DNA of 64,000 nucleotides, taken from assembly GCA_030429545.1 (NCBI GenBank), contig JAUIFF010000001.1, positions 275,599-339,598 of the forward strand, in the 5' to 3' direction. The notes beneath the pieces were generated by a model, which saw only the letters and a program-made list of their open reading frames with translations, was not told the origin of the DNA and made no database searches. Shown piece by piece: positions 4,239 to 29,082 of the stretch. A program made the position numbers and the translations under genes. Source of the DNA: Polyangia bacterium (GTDB taxonomy: Bacteria > Myxococcota_A > Polyangia > Nannocystales > Nannocystaceae). Position 1 is the stretch's first letter. Every line of letters starts with the position of its first letter.

Positions 4239-5372
4239 TTGCCCATGTCACGTCCGCTCGTGTCGCTGACCGCCGCTGCCCTGGTTTCGGGGCTGGCCGG
4301 CTGCTTTGCCGGCGACTTCGCCCTCGGTCGCCAGTGCGTCGACGATGCCGACTGCGGACCGAGCCTTGCTTGTATCAACAATTTATGTGGGGGCGAAACA
4401 GGGGCCACTTCGACGACGCTGCCGATGACCGAGTCGACCGGCTCGACGACCGACATGACGGGCTCGGAGTCCGAGACAGGTAGCGAGACCGACAGCGGTA
4501 GCGAGACCACGACCGATACCGGTGGGGAGCCGGCCTGCAAAAACGTCGACATGCTGCTGGTCCTCGACAACTCGCAAAGCATGGACCAATGGGACGGGCG
4601 CCTCATCAACCTCGCGTTCAACTTTGAGGAAGAGGTGACCGGCCTATTTTTGGGAAATGCCGAGAGTTTTCACTTCGGGGTCATCACGACCGATGCCTAC
4701 GAAGACAACACCGACGGATGTGACCAACTCGGGGCGATCGCCCGTTACGGTGGGGCCCAGGAAGGCCCCTGTGAGTTTGTCGAGGGATTTCCGTTTGCGA
4801 CCGAGCAAGACAGCCTGACGGAAGCCCTCGGGTGCATGGCGATCGTCGGTGATGGCGACGACAACGAACGCCCGATGCAGGCCATGCTCACCGCGCTCTC
4901 GCCCGAGTTTAATGGGCCGGGCGGTTGTAATGAGGGGTTTGTCCGGGAAGATGCGTTGTTGGTCGTGGTTGTGGTCACCGACGAAGATGACGACCACGCC
5001 GATGTCGACGCCCAGGGAAACAGCGGCTCGCTTGGCGATCCGGCCGATTGGTACGAACAACTCATCGCGATCAAAGGCGGCGACCCCGAGGCGGTCGTGG
5101 TGGGTGTGCTTACTGGCGAAGATCAGGAGGCGGGTAGCTGCCCTTGGGACCTCGGACCGTTTGATGATGAGTCGGAGGCGATGGGAGCCGAAGAAGCCAA
5201 GCGGATCGAGCAGTTCGTCAACATGCTGCCCTTCAACCACCGCGCCGTCGACAGCATTTGCCGCGACGAGTACATCTCGTTTTTCTCGGCCCTGTTCACC
5301 GTCAATGCCCAGATCGCCTGCGAAGAGTTTGTTCCGCCAGGCGAGGGCGAGACCGACACCGACACCGGCTGA
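4239..5372 (+). CDS. Secreted lipoprotein with Thr/Ser/Asp-rich linker and a VWA-like domain (MIDAS DxSxS)
   Basis: Signal peptide plus lipobox LAGC. Low-complexity linker TGATSTTLPMTESTGSTTDMTGSESETGSETDSGSETTTDTGGEP. Then VDMLLVLDNSQSM (DxSxS) and ALLVVVVVTDEDD (a VWA-like beta-strand ending TDx). It is paralogous to 8301..9791. Confidence 0.6.
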   Translation: MPMSRPLVSLTAAALVSGLAGCFAGDFALGRQCVDDADCGPSLACINNLCGGETGATSTTLPMTESTGSTTDMTGSESETGSETDSGSETTTDTGGEPACKNVDMLLVLDNSQSMDQWDGRLINLAFNFEEEVTGLFLGNAESFHFGVITTDAYEDNTDGCDQLGAIARYGGAQEGPCEFVEGFPFATEQDSLTEALGCMAIVGDGDDNERPMQAMLTALSPEFNGPGGCNEGFVREDALLVVVVVTDEDDDHADVDAQGNSGSLGDPADWYEQLIAIKGGDPEAVVVGVLTGEDQEAGSCPWDLGPFDDESEAMGAEEAKRIEQFVNMLPFNHRAVDSICRDEYISFFSALFTVNAQIACEEFVPPGEGETDTDTG

Positions 5373-5465
5373 CGGCTCGACAACGCGGTCTCAACAAGTG
5401 GCTTAACTAAAGATGCGTAGTCGCACACGCGAGTTGCGACCAGGTCTGTTAGCGTACCCGCTCCC

Positions 5466-8117
5466 ATGACCTACGACTTTTCGCGTATCGAAGCTGACTG
5501 GCAACGCCACTGGGATGAGCAGCAAACCTTCCGCGTGGAACTCGACACCTCGCGGCCCAAATATTTTGTGCTCGACATGTTTCCCTATCCCTCCGGGGAC
5601 GGGCTGCACGTGGGCCATCCCGAGGGTTACACCGCCACCGACATTATGGCCCGCTACAAGCGGATGAAGGGGTTTAACGTGCTCCACCCAATGGGGTGGG
5701 ACGCCTTTGGTCTACCCGCCGAGCGCTATGCCATGAAGACGGGGACCCACCCGGCGACCCGCACAGCTGAGTGTATCAGCAACTTTAAGCGTCAGCTCAA
5801 AACCCTCGGGTTTTCCTACGACTGGTCGCGCGAGGTCGATACCACGGACCCCAACTACTTTCGCTGGACGCAGTGGATCTTTTTGCAAATTTGGGGCAGC
5901 TACTACGATGCCGAGGCCGGCACCGCGCGGCCGATCGCCGAACTGCCGATTCCCCAAGAGGTTGCCGACCAGGGCGACGAGGCCGTCCGCACCTATCGCG
6001 ACAAACGCCGCCTCGCCTACCTGCGCGATGCCCCGGTCAACTGGTGCCCTGAGCTGCGGGTGGTCCTCGCCAACGAAGAGGTCAACGAACATGTCGACCA
6101 GGGCTACACCGTGGTGCGCAAACCGATGCGGCAGTGGATGTTGCGGATCACCGCCTACGCCCAGCGCCTGCTCGACGACTTAGAAGGCCTCGACTGGCCC
6201 AACAGCGTGCTCGACATGCAGCGCAACTGGATTGGCCGCAGCGAAGGCGCCGAGGTCGATTTTCAAGTTGTTGGGGTCGAGGGGGAGCAGGGTCGCCTGC
6301 GGGTATTTACAACCCGTCCCGACACCCTGTTTGGGGCCACCTACATGGTGTTGGCACCCGAGCACCCGCTGGTTGCTCAAATCACAACCGACGCCCAGCG
6401 CAAGGCTGTCGACGCCTACCTCGAACAAACCGCGCGCCGCAGCGAACGCGACCGTCAGGCCGCCGACAGCAAGACCGGTGTGTTTACCGGTGCCTATGCA
6501 ACAAATCCGGTCAACGGCCAAAACATCCCGGTGTGGATCAGCGACTACGTGTTGATGGGCTACGGGACCGGGGCGATCATGGCGGTGCCCGGGCACGACA
6601 CCCGGGACCATGCATTTGCAACGACCATGGGTCTACCGATCATCGAAGTCGTCCGCGGCAGCGAGACGGTCGACATTCAAGCAGAAGCCTTCGCAGGCGT
6701 GGGCGAGTCCGTCAACTCTGGCTTTCTAAATGGGTTACAGACACCCGCGGCCAAGGCCAAGATGATCGACTGGCTCGAGGGCCAGGGCAAGGGCAGGGGC
6801 CGCGTCACCTTTAAACTCCGCGACTGGTTGTTTTCGCGGCAGCGTTATTGGGGTGAGCCATTCCCGTTGGTGCACCGTCCGTCGGGCGAGGTTGTGCCGG
6901 TACCGCTCGATGAGTTGCCTGTACAACTACCGCCCATGGATGACTTTCAGCCGAGCGAGACCGGCGAGCCGCCGCTGTCCAAGGCCACGAAATGGCGCGA
7001 GCTCCCCGACGGTAGCCTGCGTGAGGTCAACACCATGCCGCAGTGGGCCGGCAGTTGTTGGTACTACCTGCGCTACATGGACCCGCACAACCGGGAAGCC
7101 GCGTTTAGCCGCGAGGCCGCCGACTACTGGTTGCCCGTCGATCTCTATGTCGGTGGGGCCGAACACGCGGTGCTCCACCTGCTCTACGCCCGGTTTTGGC
7201 ACAAGGTGATGTTCGACCTGGGCCACCTGGGCACACCCGAGCCGTTTCACAAGCTCGTCAACCAGGGCATGGTGCTGGGTGCGACCTACTACCCCAAGGA
7301 TCGGCGCAAGGGCGAGGACGGCCTGCCGGTGTTGTACAAGGTGCACGAGGTTGAGCCGGTCGAGCCGGGTAGCGACAAGATGCGTGTACAAACAACCGGC
7401 GAGCCCGTGGATGTCCAGTGGGACAAGATGTCCAAGAGCCGCGGCAACGTCGTCAACCCCGACGATGTCATCAAGCAGTACGGCGCCGACACCATGCGCC
7501 TGTACGAGATGTTCATGGGACCCTTGGAGCACAGCGCTCCGTGGCAGCCCGAGGGCGTCGCCGGTTGCTTCCGCTTTTTAAAGCGCGTCTACTACCTGGC
7601 GTTTGAGAGCGTCAAAGATGGTGAGGACCGTCCCCGCAAGCTGCCCGAAGGGCCAGGAACCGACGCGCAGCAACGTCTGTTGCACCGGACCATCGCCGAG
7701 GTCAGCGAACGGGTTGAACGCATGGGCTTCAACACGGCAATCAGCTCGCTGATGGTCCTGGTCCGCGATATCGGCAAGATCACCACCGGTGGCATGGAGA
7801 TTTTGTGCAAGCTCTTGGTGCCGTTTGCGCCACACCTGGCCGAAGAGATCTGGGCCAAGGTCCTGGGTCGTAGCGAGGCGCTGGCCTACGCCAGCTGGCC
7901 CGTGGCCAACCCCAAACTGTTGATCGAAGACACCTGGAAGATGGTTGTCCAGGTCAACGGCAAGCGGCGCGCCGAACTCGAGGTGCCAACCGCGGCGACC
8001 AAGGATGAGCTGATCGCCAAAGCACTTGCAGATCCAACGGTTGTGAAGTTCGTCGGGGGCAAGGAACCACGGCGAGTCATCTACGTAAAGAACCGGCTCG
8101 TGAACGTGGTTGTATAA
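5466..8117 (+). CDS. leuS: Leucine--tRNA ligase
   Basis: Class I aaRS HVGH (HIGH-type) motif near the N-terminus and KMSKS motif (KMSKSRGNVVNP). 883 aa. The CP1 editing region is present. Confidence 0.97.
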   Translation: MTYDFSRIEADWQRHWDEQQTFRVELDTSRPKYFVLDMFPYPSGDGLHVGHPEGYTATDIMARYKRMKGFNVLHPMGWDAFGLPAERYAMKTGTHPATRTAECISNFKRQLKTLGFSYDWSREVDTTDPNYFRWTQWIFLQIWGSYYDAEAGTARPIAELPIPQEVADQGDEAVRTYRDKRRLAYLRDAPVNWCPELRVVLANEEVNEHVDQGYTVVRKPMRQWMLRITAYAQRLLDDLEGLDWPNSVLDMQRNWIGRSEGAEVDFQVVGVEGEQGRLRVFTTRPDTLFGATYMVLAPEHPLVAQITTDAQRKAVDAYLEQTARRSERDRQAADSKTGVFTGAYATNPVNGQNIPVWISDYVLMGYGTGAIMAVPGHDTRDHAFATTMGLPIIEVVRGSETVDIQAEAFAGVGESVNSGFLNGLQTPAAKAKMIDWLEGQGKGRGRVTFKLRDWLFSRQRYWGEPFPLVHRPSGEVVPVPLDELPVQLPPMDDFQPSETGEPPLSKATKWRELPDGSLREVNTMPQWAGSCWYYLRYMDPHNREAAFSREAADYWLPVDLYVGGAEHAVLHLLYARFWHKVMFDLGHLGTPEPFHKLVNQGMVLGATYYPKDRRKGEDGLPVLYKVHEVEPVEPGSDKMRVQTTGEPVDVQWDKMSKSRGNVVNPDDVIKQYGADTMRLYEMFMGPLEHSAPWQPEGVAGCFRFLKRVYYLAFESVKDGEDRPRKLPEGPGTDAQQRLLHRTIAEVSERVERMGFNTAISSLMVLVRDIGKITTGGMEILCKLLVPFAPHLAEEIWAKVLGRSEALAYASWPVANPKLLIEDTWKMVVQVNGKRRAELEVPTAATKDELIAKALADPTVVKFVGGKEPRRVIYVKNRLVNVVV

Positions 8118-22000: not shown

Positions 22001-25000
22001 CTAGTGGCGACGGCGACGGAGGCCGAACAGGGCTAGTCCGAGCAGTGCCGCACCGGCCGGGGCGTTGTTGTCGTTGCTGCGACATCCACAGCCGTCCTCG
22101 ACAACCTCACCGCCGGAGTCGGTATCGGTGCCCTCCGAGTCGGAGTCGGTATCGCTGCCGCTTGCCGGGTCTCCGGAGGTTGGGCCCGCAGTCGTGGTCG
22201 GCGTGACCGTGGTGGTTCCGACAGAGTCGGAGTCCGAGGTGCCGTCGGTGTCGGTTGCGTCGGTGGTGTCCGAATCGGTGGCATCAGTTGTTGCGTCGGT
22301 GGTCGGCTCGTCGGTGGTCGCGTCTGTGGGATCGTCGGTGGTCGCGTCCGTCGTGTCGGAGTCTGTCCCCACCATGCACTCGTCTTCGTCGGTCACCCAG
22401 CTCGAAAACGGGGTGTTGTCGATCCCGGCAAACGCAATGTTGTCGATATCCCAGCCAGGGCCGCCCGCGGCCGCATCGGTACCGATCCGGAACCGCAGCT
22501 TGGCCTGCGTGCCCGCGAAGTTGTCGCCAAAGTCGAGGACCAACTGTTCCATGTCGGGGTAGGCCGAGCTATCACCGACAAATGCCGGGCGCCCGTCGAG
22601 CGGGTTGGCGGCGCTGTTGATCGGCGCGACGTAGCCCGGGTCGATGTAGGCCGAAACGTCCTCCCAGTTTTCGCCGTCGTCCCCCGAAATCTCGATCAGC
22701 CCACCGTCCCAGTAGGTGTCGTTTGAGAACTCAAACGAGAACGCGTGGTCGAAGGTGACGACCAAGGGTTCGTCTGCGCTGACCTCGAGGGTTGGGGTTT
22801 CGATCCAGGTATCGCTTTGGCGCCCCACGTCGTCGCCATGCCAACGAAAGCCTTCGGCGTAGGGGGCACGCATCCAGATTTCGTCACCGTCGGTTCCCCC
22901 GGCAATCCACGGACTATTCGGCGTTTCGACGTCGTCGGTCTTGGAGCTGTTGGCGACAATGTCGCCGTGAATGGTGGTCCGCAGTTCCTGCTCGATCACG
23001 GTTTCACAGCCGTTGGGCGCCGTGAGCCGAAGCGTCACAATGACTGGTTGATAGGACTGCAGCGACTCATCGACAGCCACGGCAATCGTCGCCGTGTGGC
23101 CCATCCCCGGCCCGACTTCGGGGAGGGTTGTCACCGGCCCGTCGGGGAACACGAGGTTGGGATCGGGGTCGACGACTTCGATGGTTGAACCGGCCTCGAG
23201 CGCACCCGAGCCGGTGTTGAGCAGATCGACGGTGATGTGCCCGAGCTCGCCAATGTCGACAATACCGTCGTCATCGCACGAGTTGGTATCGGTCATGCTG
23301 ACGCCAGAAATCACCCCGCGGGCACTGAGTTCGAAGTCCTCGACAACGCCGACCAAGTCCTCCGACATCCGCTCCGGCGATACGGCGCAGGTACCCGCAC
23401 CGCGCTCGGCAAATGCAGCCGCAACGATGCCGTAGTCCTCGGGTGTATCGCTTGCGGCGATCGCCAATAAAATCCCGTCGCGTTGCTCGGTGAAGGTCGG
23501 CAGGCTCGGTGCCATCAACATGCCGCCGACGATGTAGTCGGTCATCCGCCGGTGAATCGCCTCAAACTCGACCTGGCCCTCGTGCGCCTTGTGGAGGGCG
23601 ATGTAGCTTTGCCACAACATCGTCGACCACACCTCGCCCGTATTGTGCACCTGGGAGTTTGCCAGGCCGTTGGGGTCGAGCGGGGCGGTGTCGGGCAGTG
23701 GCTCGCCGTTGGAGATGTGGCGGAAGGTCAGTGCATTTTTATCGAAGTCGGCCGAGTAGGTCACCCGGCGGTAGCCAAAGTAGCCTGTTGGGTCGGCAAA
23801 AAACGCCGCGTAGTAGGGGAAGCCGTAGGCTCCGTCGAGATCATCACCTTCCCGTAGGGACATGTGTAGGCCGATAAAGTCACCCCAGCCCTCACCCTGA
23901 CCGCGGGTTTGGATCGACCCATTTTCGACCATCCGATTGTGGATGTAGTGGCCAAGCTCGTGGGCGATGATCAGGTTGTCGATCGTGCCGTCGCGCTCGA
24001 CCTGATTTTCCCGCAGCATGTGCCCGGTTTGTGGGTCGTTTTGCATGGCTGCCTTGATCTCGTTGCCGGCGTTGTTGGAGATGCCAAGGCTGGGGATGCT
24101 CGGGTCAGGGTGGTTGTTGTCGGGGCCTAGGGTCGGGGCCGAGTCGCCTGGTTGGTTGTTGGCGATAAGCACCCCCACCGCTCCGGCAGCCTCGGCGTGC
24201 CCGACCTTGGTCTCGAATGTGCACGAGCCCCGGTCGACCAGCGCGATCATCCCGGCGAGGTTGTTGACCGCCGGCTCGCAGCCGTCGTTGATCTCGCCCT
24301 GGCCGTCGTCGAGCAGGGCAATCGTGGCGGTGACATCAAACTGGCCGGGGCCAAAGCCGGCAGTGCCAACGGTGTACGAGGCGTCCAGCGGGTTGACGGT
24401 GAGCGACGCACTCGCGGCAGTGGCCAGGTACATTTGCATACGCGGCGATTCGCCGTCGGCTGGCGTCGACATATTGGCGTTGTTGCGGGCACCTTCGAGG
24501 GCGGCGTCCTGGGCATGGGCATGCAGGACATCGCCCTCAACCCCGCCGCGGCCGTAGTTGTTTTCCTGGGCGTTGCCGGCCTCTTCGTTGAAGCCCGAGT
24601 CGTACCACCAGTCGTGTAGCCAGTTGATCGTGTAAAACAGTTGCACGGTCGCGGCCATCGACTGCGTCTGGTTGGCCAGCGGTTCTTGAGTGACATCGTA
24701 GGTGTGGTCGAAGACGCCCGGGGCCGTGATGCTCGCGCGGTACTCATCGCCGCTTAGCCCATCGGGATTGGCGTGGTCGACATAGGCATCGACATTGTTG
24801 CCGATCGACTCGGTGGCACCGTCGGGTAGCCACGGGTCGTTGTGGATGTTGAACCCCTCCATCGTGATGAGCTTGGGTTGGGCGAATTGCGTTGGTCCTT
24901 GGCCTGGAACGCCGCCGGGGTAGGGGGAGTTGTCGACAAACGGACAGTCGTCGGGACGATGGTCGCCGCCCTCGTCAGCCCACACTCGGTATTGAAATGA

Positions 25001-25852
25001 CTCGTATTCGGTGAGGTCGCGACGGACCAGCACACGCCCGTCCTCGGCCGCAATCACGTACTCGACCACCATTGTCTCGCCACCGAGTTGCGACGTTTGC
25101 ACTTCGAGGTGGTAAGCCGGGAGCAGGGCGTCGCCCTCTGGGAAGTAGACTTTTTTGACACGTGCTGGCCGGCGAAACGCAAACCCGGGGGCTGCCACCA
25201 ACTCAAACCGTTCCCATCCACCGTCGGCGAGGCCAAGCGAGCGCATCGGCGTAGCGGGTGGTGCCGTCTCGGGTAGGAGATCGCGTAGTGCCAGCGAGAT
25301 GGCTTCGTCCGAATCGAGTGCGAACGTTTGAGCCGTTTTTGCCTGGGCTGCCGGATGGAGTGCACCGGAGACGGCACGAACCCTGCGGGAGCGGTCGAGC
25401 ATGACTTTGACATCGCCGTGAAACACATCGACATCGCCCACGGTTTGGCGCAACACAACGATGATCGGGCCGCGACCGTTGTCGTGGGTGAAGCGGTGCC
25501 GGGTGCTACGGACCACGGCATTGCTCACTCCGTAGTAGTCCCGCAACAGGTGCAGCTGATTGCGAGCCGCCGCCAAGTCTGTCCGCGCCTGCGAGCGCGG
25601 GCCATTACTCGGCAAGAGCAGCATCGAAGGCGCACCTGAGGGGGTCGTCGAGACCACAGATGCCGGCAGCGAGTTGGCGGTCGGGTGGTGTTGACGTGCG
25701 GTTTTTGGGGCCTGCAACCAGGCGTCGTGGTTGTCGAGTGGTTGGGCAACTGCTGTCGGGACAAAGCCGAGTAACGCAACGAGCAAGAGGCTCGACGAAC
25801 GGAGGAGCGGATGTGCCATGGTGTGTCGATTCGAGAGTTGTTGTGTGTACAA
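22001..25852 (-). CDS. Secreted zinc metalloprotease (M36 fungalysin-like) with PA domain and C-terminal MYXO-CTERM sorting tail
   Basis: HELGHYIHNRM...GEGWGDF (HExxH plus the downstream EGW motif typical of M36). PA-domain-like LVDRGSCTFETKVGHAEAAGAVGVLIANN. Asp/Thr-rich linker (TDATTDDPTDATTDEPTTDATTDA...). C-terminus GCGCRSNDNNAPAGAALLGLALFGLRRRRH. N-terminal signal peptide. Confidence 0.8.
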   Translation of the reverse strand: MYTQQLSNRHTMAHPLLRSSSLLLVALLGFVPTAVAQPLDNHDAWLQAPKTARQHHPTANSLPASVVSTTPSGAPSMLLLPSNGPRSQARTDLAAARNQLHLLRDYYGVSNAVVRSTRHRFTHDNGRGPIIVVLRQTVGDVDVFHGDVKVMLDRSRRVRAVSGALHPAAQAKTAQTFALDSDEAISLALRDLLPETAPPATPMRSLGLADGGWERFELVAAPGFAFRRPARVKKVYFPEGDALLPAYHLEVQTSQLGGETMVVEYVIAAEDGRVLVRRDLTEYESFQYRVWADEGGDHRPDDCPFVDNSPYPGGVPGQGPTQFAQPKLITMEGFNIHNDPWLPDGATESIGNNVDAYVDHANPDGLSGDEYRASITAPGVFDHTYDVTQEPLANQTQSMAATVQLFYTINWLHDWWYDSGFNEEAGNAQENNYGRGGVEGDVLHAHAQDAALEGARNNANMSTPADGESPRMQMYLATAASASLTVNPLDASYTVGTAGFGPGQFDVTATIALLDDGQGEINDGCEPAVNNLAGMIALVDRGSCTFETKVGHAEAAGAVGVLIANNQPGDSAPTLGPDNNHPDPSIPSLGISNNAGNEIKAAMQNDPQTGHMLRENQVERDGTIDNLIIAHELGHYIHNRMVENGSIQTRGQGEGWGDFIGLHMSLREGDDLDGAYGFPYYAAFFADPTGYFGYRRVTYSADFDKNALTFRHISNGEPLPDTAPLDPNGLANSQVHNTGEVWSTMLWQSYIALHKAHEGQVEFEAIHRRMTDYIVGGMLMAPSLPTFTEQRDGILLAIAASDTPEDYGIVAAAFAERGAGTCAVSPERMSEDLVGVVEDFELSARGVISGVSMTDTNSCDDDGIVDIGELGHITVDLLNTGSGALEAGSTIEVVDPDPNLVFPDGPVTTLPEVGPGMGHTATIAVAVDESLQSYQPVIVTLRLTAPNGCETVIEQELRTTIHGDIVANSSKTDDVETPNSPWIAGGTDGDEIWMRAPYAEGFRWHGDDVGRQSDTWIETPTLEVSADEPLVVTFDHAFSFEFSNDTYWDGGLIEISGDDGENWEDVSAYIDPGYVAPINSAANPLDGRPAFVGDSSAYPDMEQLVLDFGDNFAGTQAKLRFRIGTDAAAGGPGWDIDNIAFAGIDNTPFSSWVTDEDECMVGTDSDTTDATTDDPTDATTDEPTTDATTDATDSDTTDATDTDGTSDSDSVGTTTVTPTTTAGPTSGDPASGSDTDSDSEGTDTDSGGEVVEDGCGCRSNDNNAPAGAALLGLALFGLRRRRH

Positions 25853-26330
25853 GTGGGGGGCAAAAACCCCGATGTTGGGTCGCTATCCATCTCCGACCGA
25901 ACGGCGCATCTGTCGCACAAAACGGTTCAGAACGATGCTTGCGGTGGCAGCGAGACTATAATTCATGATGTCACAAAAACACAATCCTAACTTTTCGCAA
26001 TCGAACTCACGTGAATGATGTACCCACAAGTGGTTGAACCGCGCATGCGCACTTGCTTGCCGAGGAAAACCTCACAGGCAAATTTGCTGTAACGCACGTG
26101 TAACATGTTGCTACAAACATATCTATGCATAGACATTTATTTTGTTGTTTGTACAAACAGTCTTGACGCCGGACACCCGCCATAAAATCGCCGCTGTCTC
26201 AATCGACCGCGAGCGGGTTCACGCCTATCGGGCTCTCGGTAGGTCAAACCGATAAGTTAACGTCATTCGCGGCAAATGTCCCCAGTGACTTATCCGCCAT
26301 CGGCTCGGCTGACGTGTTAGAACAGATTCA

Positions 26331-27365
26331 ATGGCGCGGTTGTGGGTTGGCTTGTGGGTGCTGGGCATGCTGTGGGGTTGCAAGATGGACAATCCGGCTT
26401 TTCGCGAGTCACAAAGTGGCTCGGGGGACACGACGAATGTCACAGGGTCGGATAGCTCCGATGCCACCTCTGTTGCCCCGACGGGCTCTGACACCGACTC
26501 GACGGCGTCGACCGACACGACCGCCGGAACCGACCCAACGGACGACCCGACTGCGACTTCAGGTTCGACCTCAGATGTCGGCACGACCGATTCGTCGACA
26601 AGCGACACAACCGGCTCGGACACGGACGTTGGGACCGACACCGAAGCGGAGACGGAGTCGGAGACCGGCCAGGGGTTGTGCCCCGACGCGGCCGAGCCGG
26701 ACTTCGACATGGCGTTTTTCTTTGGCGCCGAAGAAGCCATCAACACATGCGACCATACCTACGACGGATTTGCCCGATTTCAGGAGTACGACCCGGTCAA
26801 TCGGCGCATCAAGATGAATCAATGCACCGGTAAATCGCAGTGCCTAGATCCCCAGTTCGTCTGTGGTGGGACGGCGATTACCGTGGAATTTGAGCTGCCC
26901 CAGGGAGACGTTCAGACCTATTTACCGTCGGCCGAGATAGGTCAGTGTATGCGGTATGTCATCGATGTGCGGCGCCCCGGTGATTTGCCAATGGAGTGTA
27001 AGGGCAGCTCTCTGGTGTTGATCGAGGAGTTTGAAGGTAGCGGTCCCAAGCTGCGTTATGCGGCCGCGCGTGACCAGGTTGGCCAGCCGTCGGGGGCCGG
27101 TCCAGAACTCGCAGTCGATACCAAACAGGCGACGACGTGCCCGTGCGACGGCATGTGTTGCAACATCCAGCCGTTGCAGCCCGGAGTCTACGAGCTCGTG
27201 TTCGCGGGGACGGCGTTGAGTGGGTCAGCGGCCCTGGTTCAAGGAGCCGCCAACAAGGAGCTCATGCTTCACGAACAGCCGGTTTCGATCCGCAACTTCG
27301 CCAGCAATGTCTCGGGGCAGTGTGCCCCGCCAAACTGGGCCTGGGCCGTTCGCCGTCACGATTAG
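26331..27365 (+). CDS. Secreted lipoprotein, Cys-rich C-terminal domain; member of a tandem paralog pair
   Basis: Signal peptide plus Cys (MLWGC) directly followed by KMDNPAFRE. Ser/Thr/Asp-rich linker. Cys-rich globular part (CTGKSQCLDPQFVCGG..., TTCPCDGMCCN). Confidence 0.6.
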   Translation: MARLWVGLWVLGMLWGCKMDNPAFRESQSGSGDTTNVTGSDSSDATSVAPTGSDTDSTASTDTTAGTDPTDDPTATSGSTSDVGTTDSSTSDTTGSDTDVGTDTEAETESETGQGLCPDAAEPDFDMAFFFGAEEAINTCDHTYDGFARFQEYDPVNRRIKMNQCTGKSQCLDPQFVCGGTAITVEFELPQGDVQTYLPSAEIGQCMRYVIDVRRPGDLPMECKGSSLVLIEEFEGSGPKLRYAAARDQVGQPSGAGPELAVDTKQATTCPCDGMCCNIQPLQPGVYELVFAGTALSGSAALVQGAANKELMLHEQPVSIRNFASNVSGQCAPPNWAWAVRRHD

Positions 27366-27375
27366 TGGATTTTAG

Positions 27376-28431
27376 ATGAACATACATAAAAAATTGTGTT
27401 CGTACACATTTATTCTGGTCGTTGGTAAGGTTGTGGCCATTGCTAGCTGTACGATGGACAATCCAGCATTTCGCGAGCCGACCGCGGGTGTCAGTGCGAC
27501 CGACTCTGGGGCGTCTTCTGCGACCTCCGAGCCGACGGTGGACCCGACCACCCAGGGCCCGACGACCGGTGACACCGCGAGTTCGTCAGCAACCCCAACT
27601 GTTGATCCTACATCGACTTCTGAGCCAACCGAAGACCCGAGTGACGCGACCACCACGACCACCGGCCCCGACAGTGATAGCGTTTCAGAAGCCGGCCCCG
27701 ATAGCGAGACGATGACGACGACCGAGGGGGATAGTGCAGGTGCCGTCTGTGACCCGTTTGTGCCCCCAAACTTCGACTTTACAGTCTACAACGGGGATGT
27801 TGAGCTCGTCAGTGATTGCGGCTCCGAGTTAGTCGGCTACGCCCAGGTTCACAGCTACGCAGCCGACACCGAGACGATCAAGTTGGTCAAGTGTGATGGT
27901 GAGTTGCAATGCCTCACCGAAATTTGCGAGGGCGAGTCTATCAATATCGACCTCGACTACCCCATGCTCGAGGAGGCTGAGTTTGCCCCCCACGTGACGC
28001 CCGGGGCCTGTGCCGGCTTTGCCTTTGGTCTGCGGCGCCCGACTGGTGGTGGGTGCAAAGCTGGCTCGGTCACGCTGACAGCTTCGCCCTCGGTGGAAAA
28101 CCTCGACTCTCCAGAGCCGCTTGTTTACGCGGCGGTCAATGGGTTGACGAGCTATACCCGGGCGTTCGACTTCGAACTCGAACTGCTGGCGGAGTGCGCG
28201 TGTTTTGCGGCCTGTTGCGACGACCTCCCGGCACCGCCCGGGACCTCGTTGCTCAGGTTTAGTGGCGGGAGCCTCAAGGCGCAGGTGATTACGCTCGGAC
28301 CCGGGATGTCTGAGATGGTCATGATCGACGAGGGCATGGGGGCGATGAAAAACTACGCCTCGGCGATGGATGCCGACTGCGATGCCGATCCCTACTTTGC
28401 TTGGGTTGTCAGCCGCGAGCCGATACCGTAG
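27376..28431 (+). CDS. Secreted lipoprotein, paralog of 26331..27365
   Basis: AIASC followed by TMDNPAFRE, the same post-lipobox motif as the upstream gene. Ser/Thr/Pro-rich linker. Cys-rich part (CACFAACCDD). Confidence 0.6.
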   Translation: MNIHKKLCSYTFILVVGKVVAIASCTMDNPAFREPTAGVSATDSGASSATSEPTVDPTTQGPTTGDTASSSATPTVDPTSTSEPTEDPSDATTTTTGPDSDSVSEAGPDSETMTTTEGDSAGAVCDPFVPPNFDFTVYNGDVELVSDCGSELVGYAQVHSYAADTETIKLVKCDGELQCLTEICEGESINIDLDYPMLEEAEFAPHVTPGACAGFAFGLRRPTGGGCKAGSVTLTASPSVENLDSPEPLVYAAVNGLTSYTRAFDFELELLAECACFAACCDDLPAPPGTSLLRFSGGSLKAQVITLGPGMSEMVMIDEGMGAMKNYASAMDADCDADPYFAWVVSREPIP

Positions 28432-28443
28432 CTGTAGAGGGCT

Positions 28444-29082
28444 TTGCGAGCGGTTTGCTCACATGTTCGGGGCAAGAACCGCTTGCGCGTCACGCCGTGC
28501 ACCGCTAGGTTGACCGCCGAATTTGAGGTCGCCGTGAAGCCAGTCGACATCTGCAAGCATCTAGGTTCTGAACACATTGATTCCTACTACAACGAGCTGT
28601 CCGGCAAAGAAGTCCGGGCGGTCTTGAAGGCAGGGAGCACCTCGACCGGCGTGCCCTCGACCGCGTTTACCCAGGCGGCCCGCCGCAAGGTGTGGCGCAA
28701 GCGGTTTGACAGCGAGTTTAGCCGCAACAACGAGTCGCTGGCGCTCGCGTTGCTCATCGAGTGGCTCATGCGTCACCACCGGAGCATGTTGGTCGACTAC
28801 CTCGACTTCCTGGGCGTGCCGCACCGCCAGGGCGAGACCGACGAAGACTTTTGCGAGACCCGCGAGCCCGAAAAGCTGCGCGAGGGTGTCAAAGTCCTGA
28901 TGGAAAAGTACCCGCACCACCACGTGGCAACGTACATGCTGTTGGTTGGTCACCTGCAGGAGACGGTTGTTTTTGACCAAACTCCCGAGGTCTTAGAGGC
29001 CCTGGGCATGAACAAAGACGACGCCGCGGCCTACATCGCAAAGCACAAGGCCAAACACGAGAAGAAAAAAGCCGCGAGCTAA
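28444..29082 (+). CDS. Hypothetical protein
   Basis: ORF with a Lys-rich C-terminus. First of three co-directional genes upstream of the MVP-like gene. The start is uncertain. Confidence 0.4.
   Translation: MRAVCSHVRGKNRLRVTPCTARLTAEFEVAVKPVDICKHLGSEHIDSYYNELSGKEVRAVLKAGSTSTGVPSTAFTQAARRKVWRKRFDSEFSRNNESLALALLIEWLMRHHRSMLVDYLDFLGVPHRQGETDEDFCETREPEKLREGVKVLMEKYPHHHVATYMLLVGHLQETVVFDQTPEVLEALGMNKDDAAAYIAKHKAKHEKKKAAS

Follow-up and report, generated by a model that had tools for sequence, protein, structure and literature searches.

A conserved peptide beside the predicted lipid anchor in a tandemly amplified family of stalked lipoproteins from Nannocystaceae-like Myxococcota

Introduction

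The sorting of bacterial lipoproteins beyond the +2 rule of Escherichia coli is poorly understood. In Proteobacteria, the Lol-avoidance signals are located at positions +2 to +4, counting the lipidated cysteine as +1 (Cys+1): Asp at +2 in E. coli, Lys or Ser at +3 and +4 in Pseudomonas. For the Myxococcota, only the +2 Lys and the +7 Ala tendency have to our knowledge been described so far. The present work deals with a stretch of 64,000 nucleotides, called here the window, from a Polyangia bacterium of the Nannocystaceae (GenBank assembly GCA_030429545.1, contig JAUIFF010000001.1, positions 275,599 to 339,598 of the forward strand). Two adjacent open reading frames (ORFs), ORF A and ORF B, encode predicted lipoproteins in which the same octapeptide, MDNPAFRE, stands one residue after Cys+1. 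These two genes are in all likelihood tandem members of an undescribed lipoprotein family with the architecture, evolution and motif described below, and the conserved peptide beside the lipid anchor is probably a recognition signal.

Several described systems offer points of comparison. The variable lipoproteins of Borrelia and Mycoplasma are encoded by tandem, fast-diverging genes in which the whole leader is conserved through recombination. In Bacteroidota, a short peptide following the cysteine is enough to bring a lipoprotein to the cell surface (Lauber et al. 2016, PMC5080379). This lipoprotein export signal (LES), K-(D/E)2 or Q-A-(D/E)2 and also SDDDD, is defined by its negative charge and is common to many unrelated surface lipoproteins (PMC5080379). 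In Myxococcus xanthus, Lys at +2 leads to retention in the inner membrane and Ala at +7 to the export of FibA to the matrix (Bhat et al. 2011, PMC3222651). The Ala +7 rule is a statistical tendency, this residue being enriched in matrix lipoproteins (7 of 10). In FibA, whose N-terminus reads C-N-E-S-T-P-A according to published primers, Ala +7 overrides the +2 Lys rule, and the A27D change at this position blocks matrix export and leaves the protein in the outer membrane (PMC3222651). Lastly, the MYXO-CTERM sorting domain is a hallmark of Myxococcota that marks a cell-surface sorting class, with a C-terminal anchor processed by an intramembrane protease (PMC11980579).

Architecture of the gene pair

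ORF A and ORF B lie on the same strand with a gap of 10 bp, in which a scan found no terminator-like site. Their parts are listed below in window positions; pLDDT (predicted local distance difference test) and pTM (predicted template modeling) are AlphaFold2 scores.

26331-27365, + strand: ORF A, predicted lipoprotein precursor of 344 aa, stop codon included (ORF list, BLASTP)
26331-26378, + strand: ORF A predicted signal peptide, residues 1-16, MARLWVGLWVLGMLWG, lipobox L-W-G-C (by eye)
26379-26408, + strand: ORF A Cys+1 and motif, CKMDNPAFRE, residues 17-26 (sequence, position counts)
26409-26678, + strand: ORF A linker, 90 residues, acidic, Ser/Thr-rich, predicted disordered (composition; pLDDT 38-48)
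26679-27362, + strand: ORF A C-terminal domain, 228 residues, 12 Cys, predicted mostly beta (alignment; AlphaFold2 pLDDT 92, pTM 0.90)
27376-28431, + strand: ORF B, predicted lipoprotein precursor of 351 aa, stop codon included (ORF list, BLASTP)
27376-27447, + strand: ORF B predicted signal peptide, residues 1-24, MNIHKKLCSYTFILVVGKVVAIAS, lipobox I-A-S-C (by eye)
27448-27477, + strand: ORF B Cys+1 and motif, CTMDNPAFRE, residues 25-34 (sequence, position counts)
27478-27747, + strand: ORF B linker, 90 residues, acidic, Ser/Thr-rich (composition)
27748-28428, + strand: ORF B C-terminal domain, 227 residues, 12 Cys (alignment)

The two proteins are homologous (BLASTP E = 1e-32, 29% identity), and the 12 Cys of the C-terminal domain are invariant, all of them being aligned between ORF A and ORF B; the C-terminal ends read ...AWAVRRHD and ...VVSREPIP, respectively. 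An earlier note on this DNA had described tandem paralogous lipoproteins with homologous, diverged Cys-rich domains, unrelated low-complexity linkers and a common octapeptide after the cysteine, and all of this stands. The N-termini are MARLWVGLWVLGMLWG/CKMDNPAFRE and MNIHKKLCSYTFILVVGKVVAIAS/CTMDNPAFRE, the slash marking the predicted cleavage site: after Cys+1 and K or T at +2, the eight residues are identical. K and R are absent from both linkers, which consist for 91-92% of S, T, D, E, P, G and A, hold 16-19 acidic residues and share no alignable sequence despite their equal Cys-to-Cys spacing. The first Cys of the domain is indeed found exactly 100 residues past the lipid-anchor Cys in both proteins (26379-26681 and 27448-27750).

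Lipoproteins were recognized by a lipobox of the form [LVI][ASTVI][GAS]C about 15-30 residues from the start, after a basic and a hydrophobic region. In both signal peptides, a hydrophobic stretch follows a basic N-terminal region and leads to a lipobox-type Cys (by inspection, MAR-LWVGLWVLGM-LWG-C in ORF A and MNIHKK-...VVAIAS-C in ORF B), and both ORFs carry the sequence characters of a bacterial lipoprotein with a predicted type-II signal peptide. The 22 homologs with a complete N-terminus described below are all organized in this way. The lipobox of ORF A is atypical in its Trp at -2. In ORF B, a Lys at -7 from the Cys (codon 18, 27427-27429) lies inside the hydrophobic region, which is also atypical. 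The exact ORF A protein is found again in NCBI and Logan assemblies, and the same tandem pair is present in contigs of six metagenomic runs. In a variant strain, the ORF A protein is unchanged with 2 synonymous changes, and ORF B (P0003) has 13 nucleotide and 8 amino-acid changes, none of them in the motif and one of them, K18N, in the signal peptide.

Conservation of the motif across the family

The family was delineated independently of the motif. The two C-terminal domains, taken without motif and linker, gave the profile for a HMMER search of 1.84 billion representative proteins, which retrieved 21 proteins at E <= 0.001. By our reading, fourteen of them, ORF A and ORF B included, give a single match over most of the domain; the seven others are long proteins matched over several short stretches. 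As called in the databases, the homologs start with CKMDNPAFRE, (M)DNPAFLE, (M)NNPAFGD, (M)ENPAFQE or CRMPNPAFQE, and further ones with CPFPNGDFDA, CTRPNPGFGG, CSFKNPAFDD or CAFTNPDYNG; two single-match homologs are truncated. A local hidden Markov model built from the domain-only alignment detected 27 ORFs in the fetched loci, which correspond to 23 distinct genes. The N-terminus is complete in 22 of these, and all 22 carry the motif directly after the lipobox.

Residues were counted position by position in 23 sequences, namely the 22 domain-profile homologs with a complete N-terminus and P0017 from the protein library:

+2: variable (T 8, S 6, P 3, K 2, A 2, R 1, Q 1)
+3: hydrophobic in 22 of 23 (F 10, M 8, and I, L, V, Y one each)
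+4: variable
+5: Asn in 23 of 23
+6: Pro in 21, Gly in 2
+7: Ala in 11, Asp in 5, Asn in 4, others in 3
+8: aromatic in 23 of 23 (F 15, Y 7, W 1)
+9 and +10: chiefly acidic or Gly

The strict conservation from +2 to +9 that the earlier note had seen in the pair must be narrowed. The real core is shorter, a hydrophobic residue at +3, Asn +5, Pro +6 and an aromatic residue at +8 (C-x-hydrophobic-x-N-P-x-aromatic), of which MDNPAFRE is the local or subfamily form. In a full-length alignment of twelve members that are 20-34% identical to ORF A, Asn +5 and a single Gly of the domain are the only invariant residues other than Cys. Homologs that retain the motif are only 20-35% identical and come from genomes with a GC content of 0.54-0.72.

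This distribution bears on the most trivial explanation of the shared octapeptide, a passive remnant of a recent duplication or gene conversion, or a constraint acting on DNA, RNA or a start codon. The adjacency of ORF A and ORF B would fit a remnant. The earlier note had proposed that the motif would in that case be lacking from homologs elsewhere, and the opposite was found, every complete homolog found elsewhere having it. The codons are equally informative:

ORF A: ATG GAC AAT CCG GCT TTT CGC GAG
ORF B: ATG GAC AAT CCA GCA TTT CGC GAG
L001 homolog: ATG GAT AAT CCG GCC TTC CGG GAA

The two window copies differ by 2 synonymous changes, and the homolog of locus L001 differs from ORF A by 5 synonymous and no non-synonymous changes. 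On either side of the motif, signal peptides and linkers are unalignable among the three genes. Since the motif codons differ only synonymously between unalignable flanks, selection acts on the peptide and not on the DNA.

The start-codon version of this explanation deserves attention because gene callers took the motif Met as the start in P0005, P0006 and P0008. The public gene calls of four members (L015 764, L019 2890, L021 633, L034 3345) begin inside or after the motif, three of them at the motif Met and one downstream of it; the true signal peptide and lipobox, lost from these calls, are encoded upstream in the same frame. Each of the three Met-start genes has, upstream and in frame, a GTG or ATG followed by a hydrophobic stretch and a lipobox (...FVLALCG/CT, ...VVIICG/CT and ...LCMFSG/CT), and most members have F, I, L, V or Y in place of the Met at +3. 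Judged from these upstream sequences, the calls at the motif Met are start-site miscalls. Automated annotation would overlook the lipoprotein nature of such members. Altogether, chance, gene conversion and a nucleic-acid constraint are effectively excluded as origins of the shared octapeptide, and the remnant explanation as a whole is effectively refuted.

The rate of divergence around the motif can be appreciated at L001, a locus of an uncultured Nannocystaceae metagenome-assembled genome (MAG; GC 0.60). It was the sole real match in a scan for MDNPAFRE covering one genome per species, in a collection outside which the source genome of the window falls; 14 matches were obtained against about 9 expected by chance (our own estimate), and the other 13 have no ORF or lipobox context. 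The single L001 lipoprotein gene (4535-5599, against two genes in the window) starts ...LTLSA/CKMDNPAFRE and its product is 34% identical to ORF A and 32% to ORF B, whereas the proteins on either side share 75-83% identity from one locus to the other. Divergence of the lipoprotein gene thus greatly outpaces that of its surroundings, and CKMDNPAFRE is unchanged between ORF A and L001 despite a lipoprotein identity of 32-34%. The sequences show a motif under strong protein-level purifying selection within an otherwise fast-diverging and repeatedly duplicated gene family. They likewise confirm that it is a real, family-defining and lipid-proximal short linear motif.

Several loci contain more than one member:

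L016: 2 tandem copies (Nannocystaceae MAG)
L030: 3 tandem copies
L031: 3 tandem copies
L032/L033: 5 tandem copies
L034: 4 tandem copies

These loci show, from their gene sequences, that the family is tandemly amplified in Nannocystaceae-like Myxococcota, the arrays comprising between 2 and at least 5 genes. Its predicted architecture comprises a stalk of about 75-155 residues followed by a beta-rich domain of about 230 residues with 9-12 Cys, 12 in most members. The first domain Cys is found at +85 to +164, that is, 84-163 residues from the anchor Cys, and the linker composition is constant, being acidic with almost no K or R.

Other searches were less productive. A metagenome scan with a pattern taken from the family alignment gave 48 matches including 1 homolog (L031). 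The full-length ORF B protein retrieved only itself among 4992 candidates; low-complexity words of the linker are suspected, not shown, to swamp the index. The same protein search with the domain alignment returned 3 proteins only, missing known members, and is uninformative for the family.

Predicted structure of the Cys-rich domain

No match to Pfam-A or NCBIfam models was found for ORF A or ORF B at E <= 1, including TIGR03901, the NCBIfam model of MYXO-CTERM. The domain of ORF A was modeled with AlphaFold2, alone (14 aligned sequences) and within the mature full-length protein (11 aligned sequences). The domain-alone model is mostly beta and confident (pLDDT 92.1, pTM 0.90). Foldseek returned nothing at E <= 0.001 for it among solved structures, and a sequence-profile search of the PDB with the domain gave nothing meaningful. 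The modeled domain is accordingly described here as lacking a detectable relative among solved structures and in Pfam-A or NCBIfam. A PDB match obtained with the motif profile, a ferredoxin, was rejected as chance. Since the domain holds 9-12 Cys, 12 in most members, which is enough for six disulfides, it would be extracytoplasmic.

In the full-length model, the domain is again mostly above 90, residues 1-10 have a pLDDT of about 48 and the linker scores 38-48. Motif and linker have no secondary structure and show no sign of docking. The suggestion of the earlier note that the motif is not a fold constraint agrees with this model, according to which the motif is a linear element within a tether that is itself disordered.

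The same model is relevant to the idea that the motif is an epitope, folding onto the Cys-rich domain of its own chain or binding that of a neighboring paralog. Motif, stalk and domain always occur together, and the stalkless distant homolog P0015 is also devoid of the motif, as this idea would predict. It nevertheless seems quite improbable: the motif is left undocked and without secondary structure (pLDDT about 48), the domain is already confidently predicted on its own (pLDDT 92), and the motif does not change even where the domain surface has diverged to 20-35% identity.

Occurrence of the motif in other lipoproteins

The specificity of the motif was evaluated by scanning the window and eight related loci, about 140 kb in all, with the regular expression C-x(2,3)-N-[PG]-x-[FYW]. 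Every match in a signal-peptide context is a family member. The window encodes, in addition, candidate lipoproteins that lack the motif:

4239, + strand: CFAGDFALGR
20183, - strand: CSDSEG
36482: CGTPGG
37973: CASKGP
62480, - strand: CNMKPA

Some of the motif-less lipoproteins in the scanned DNA are stalked and Cys-rich, such as the one at window position 4239 with its ortholog at L016 18783, and the one at L019 235 (CFIDDGRTEG). In this small sample of related DNA, the motif seems to travel with the family and not with lipoproteins or stalks in general. A motif confined to one family is better explained by a recognition element specific to that family than by a general sorting code. A 40-column profile of the N-terminus, run against large databases, gave 100 candidates with none at E <= 10, from which no conclusion can be drawn.

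The stalked lipoprotein at 4239-5372 (+ strand) is a side observation of some interest. Its signal peptide ends in ...LAG and its mature part begins with CFAGDFALGRQC, followed by a Thr/Glu/Pro-rich linker; it has neither the N-P-x-aromatic motif nor an NCBIfam match. Its ortholog occupies L016 18783-19330 in the Nannocystaceae MAG.

The occurrence of stalks without motif also touches a purely physical explanation. The motif could be a hook at the membrane interface, in which an Asn-Pro turn joins the hydrophobic +3 and the aromatic +8 residues so that both insert beside the acyl chains without any partner; such an insertion would fix the orientation of the first stalk residues. The residue classes are suitable (+3 hydrophobic in 22 of 23, F, Y or W at +8 in 23 of 23, N-P between them), and a strongly acidic stalk free of K and R follows directly. 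Other stalked lipoproteins of the same DNA do without it, however, and strict Asn invariance points to specific recognition more than to a generic contact with the membrane, which makes this hook improbable.

Comparison with known signals and possible function

The motif resembles, by analogy, known post-lipobox sorting signals in position and logic, and matches none of them in sequence. Like the LES, it is a short peptide located right after the lipidated Cys in an otherwise unstructured N-terminus, where the position relative to Cys+1 matters. It differs in its pattern, hydrophobic-x-N-P-x-aromatic, in the absence of a charge requirement, in belonging to another phylum and in being seen in one protein family only; at +2 to +6, ORF A reads K-M-D-N-P and ORF B T-M-D-N-P, with one acidic residue each and no (D/E)2. 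The Lol-avoidance signals have in common with the motif that sorting information lies just after Cys+1, but the family varies at +2 and +4 and is conserved at +3, +5, +6 and +8.

The parallel with FibA is closer in taxonomic terms, the phylum being the same, and in FibA a position well past +2 governs export. ORF A and ORF B have Pro +6 and Ala +7 as FibA does, and thus the Ala +7 of matrix-exported lipoproteins. At +2, ORF A has Lys and ORF B Thr, Lys being present in 2 of the 23 family members. The invariant Asn +5 and the aromatic +8 are foreign to the M. xanthus rule, and Ala +7 is found in 11 of 23 only.

Two further systems share the setting of the family. The MYXO-CTERM tail (TIGR03901) is a Myxococcota envelope anchor placed beside a low-complexity stalk, as exemplified by the M36 peptidase encoded next to ORF A, but ORF A and ORF B have no such C-terminal tail. 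Their acidic stalk resembles the Thr/Asp-rich stalk preceding the anchor of this peptidase. With the lipoproteins of Borrelia and Mycoplasma the family shares tandem amplification and fast divergence; its signal peptides are not conserved, however, and only the Cys and the 8-residue mature N-terminus are kept.

A motif that is predicted to lie outside the globular fold, within eight residues of the predicted acylated Cys, and that remains invariant amid drift most likely acts as a recognition element close to the membrane, read in trans. The component that reads it would belong to trafficking or display and would set the destination of these stalked lipoproteins, for example the cell surface or the matrix. 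FibA and the LES are both precedents for such a step, which is the most economical candidate. The long acidic stalk and the disulfide-rich domain fit a protein held off the membrane in an oxidizing compartment. The best overall explanation, which should be taken as tentative, combines the family description with a motif recognized in trans. That the motif serves specifically in trafficking or display, a function inferred from sequence, is possible and open to considerable doubt. The boldest version, a new Myxococcota export or display signal whose dedicated envelope reader places a diversifying family of stalked proteins with a novel fold on the surface, is unlikely as it stands. If true, the motif would be to myxobacteria what the LES is to Bacteroidota, in this case on a family of variable surface receptors.

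A number of points speak against a trafficking role. The LES is charge-based and proteome-wide, and the motif appears to be neither. A motif present in one family only might just as well serve that family in binding, processing or membrane contact, and its family specificity was assessed over about 140 kb of related DNA. We know of no published sorting rule that includes the invariant Asn +5 and the aromatic +8, and with Ala +7 in only 11 of 23 members the FibA parallel is weak. P0015, a distant member (E = 1e-5), is devoid of motif and linker alike. The genomic context differs from one family locus to another, and no candidate for the recognition machinery is consistently found together with the family. 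To these must be added the failure of AlphaFold2 to dock the motif, which as a prediction is weak negative evidence.

Processing is the other role to be considered for a conserved linear peptide in a disordered region right after the anchor. A protease could recognize the motif and free the stalk and the Cys-rich domain from the lipid anchor into the matrix or the medium, and a gene for a cell-surface M36 metallopeptidase divergently adjoins the lipoprotein gene(s) in the window and in L001. This neighbor is restricted to those two loci and absent from the other family loci, and nothing else indicates cleavage. Shedding is for these reasons hardly likely.

An invariant peptide with four key positions beside a lipid anchor is a handle for mutagenesis and for pull-downs aimed at its reader. 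The unannotated domain, with its confident predicted fold, its lack of a PDB neighbor and its arrayed genes, has a rate of evolution close to that of known variable surface proteins, and array amplification with fast divergence hints at a role in interactions with prey, phages or kin. A practical limit is that all known members come from uncultured or poorly studied organisms.

Neighboring genes

The M36 gene mentioned above (22001-25852, - strand) is divergent from ORF A and encodes a 1283-aa myxosortase-dependent metallopeptidase of the fungalysin type with a PA domain. It is identified by a match to NF038112, and its MYXO-CTERM tail by TIGR03901 (27.8 bits for a cutoff of 20). The Thr/Asp-rich stalk of this protein precedes a tail reading GCGCRS...LLGLALFGLRRRRH. 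This tail and the Nannocystaceae MAG of L001, the closest locus, both mark the source of the window as a myxobacterium. The gene order of L001 is syntenic with that of the window: M36 peptidase, lipoprotein, 210-aa protein, TPR protein and 317-aa protein.

A conserved gene, coding for 212 aa in the window, follows a family member in three loci: window 28444-29082 (+ strand), L001 3843-4475 (- strand) and L022 3158-3487. The protein is 83% identical between the window and L001, and the L022 contig has a GC content of 0.72. It has no Pfam or NCBIfam match and no evident signal peptide. A functional link with the lipoprotein family was considered and rejected: the gene is conserved at 83% and absent from the other family loci, and its presence is probably plain synteny.

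Two conserved genes are found upstream of the arrays of 4-5 genes (L032 2025-4152 and L034 1-2086) and are 63-69% identical between these loci. Their products have signal peptides, acidic or TPR regions, predicted transmembrane segments and a basic cluster, and similar C-terminal tails ending in ...GVAYSMQF and ...GLVWTSRF. They gave no informative Pfam match and have no homolog in the window. As candidates for an export machinery they were set aside, with no Slam or beta-barrel signature and no window counterpart, and a link cannot be claimed. In the Nannocystaceae MAG of L016, the P0012 tandem pair is preceded, at a distance of about 6 kb, by a reverse-transcriptase gene (RVT_1, L016 702-2249).

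Upstream intergenic region

The region that separates the M36 gene from ORF A comprises the following features:

25853-26330, no strand: divergent intergenic region between the M36 peptidase (-) and ORF A (+), 478 bp, GC 0.50 (composition)
25954-26045, no strand: block of about 90 bp, near-identical in the L001 intergenic region, candidate regulatory element (pairwise alignment, hexamer scan)

The earlier note had seen here an AT-rich region with a likely promoter. The AT-richness is real (GC 0.50 against 0.61 for the window), whereas the promoter was not recognized: no sigma-70 consensus is present in 25853-26330, for 1.0 expected by chance, and no sigma-54-like site, the only hits being isolated -10-like hexamers. 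Rfam gave no match in the same interval. A promoter must nonetheless lie somewhere within it. A perfect TATAAT (25957-25962) stands within the conserved block of about 90 bp, and the remainder of the intergenic region is poorly conserved with respect to L001. A perfect palindrome, TGTTTGTACAAACA, is found at 26146-26159 with a related copy at 26106-26119, and block and palindrome may both be regulatory sites.

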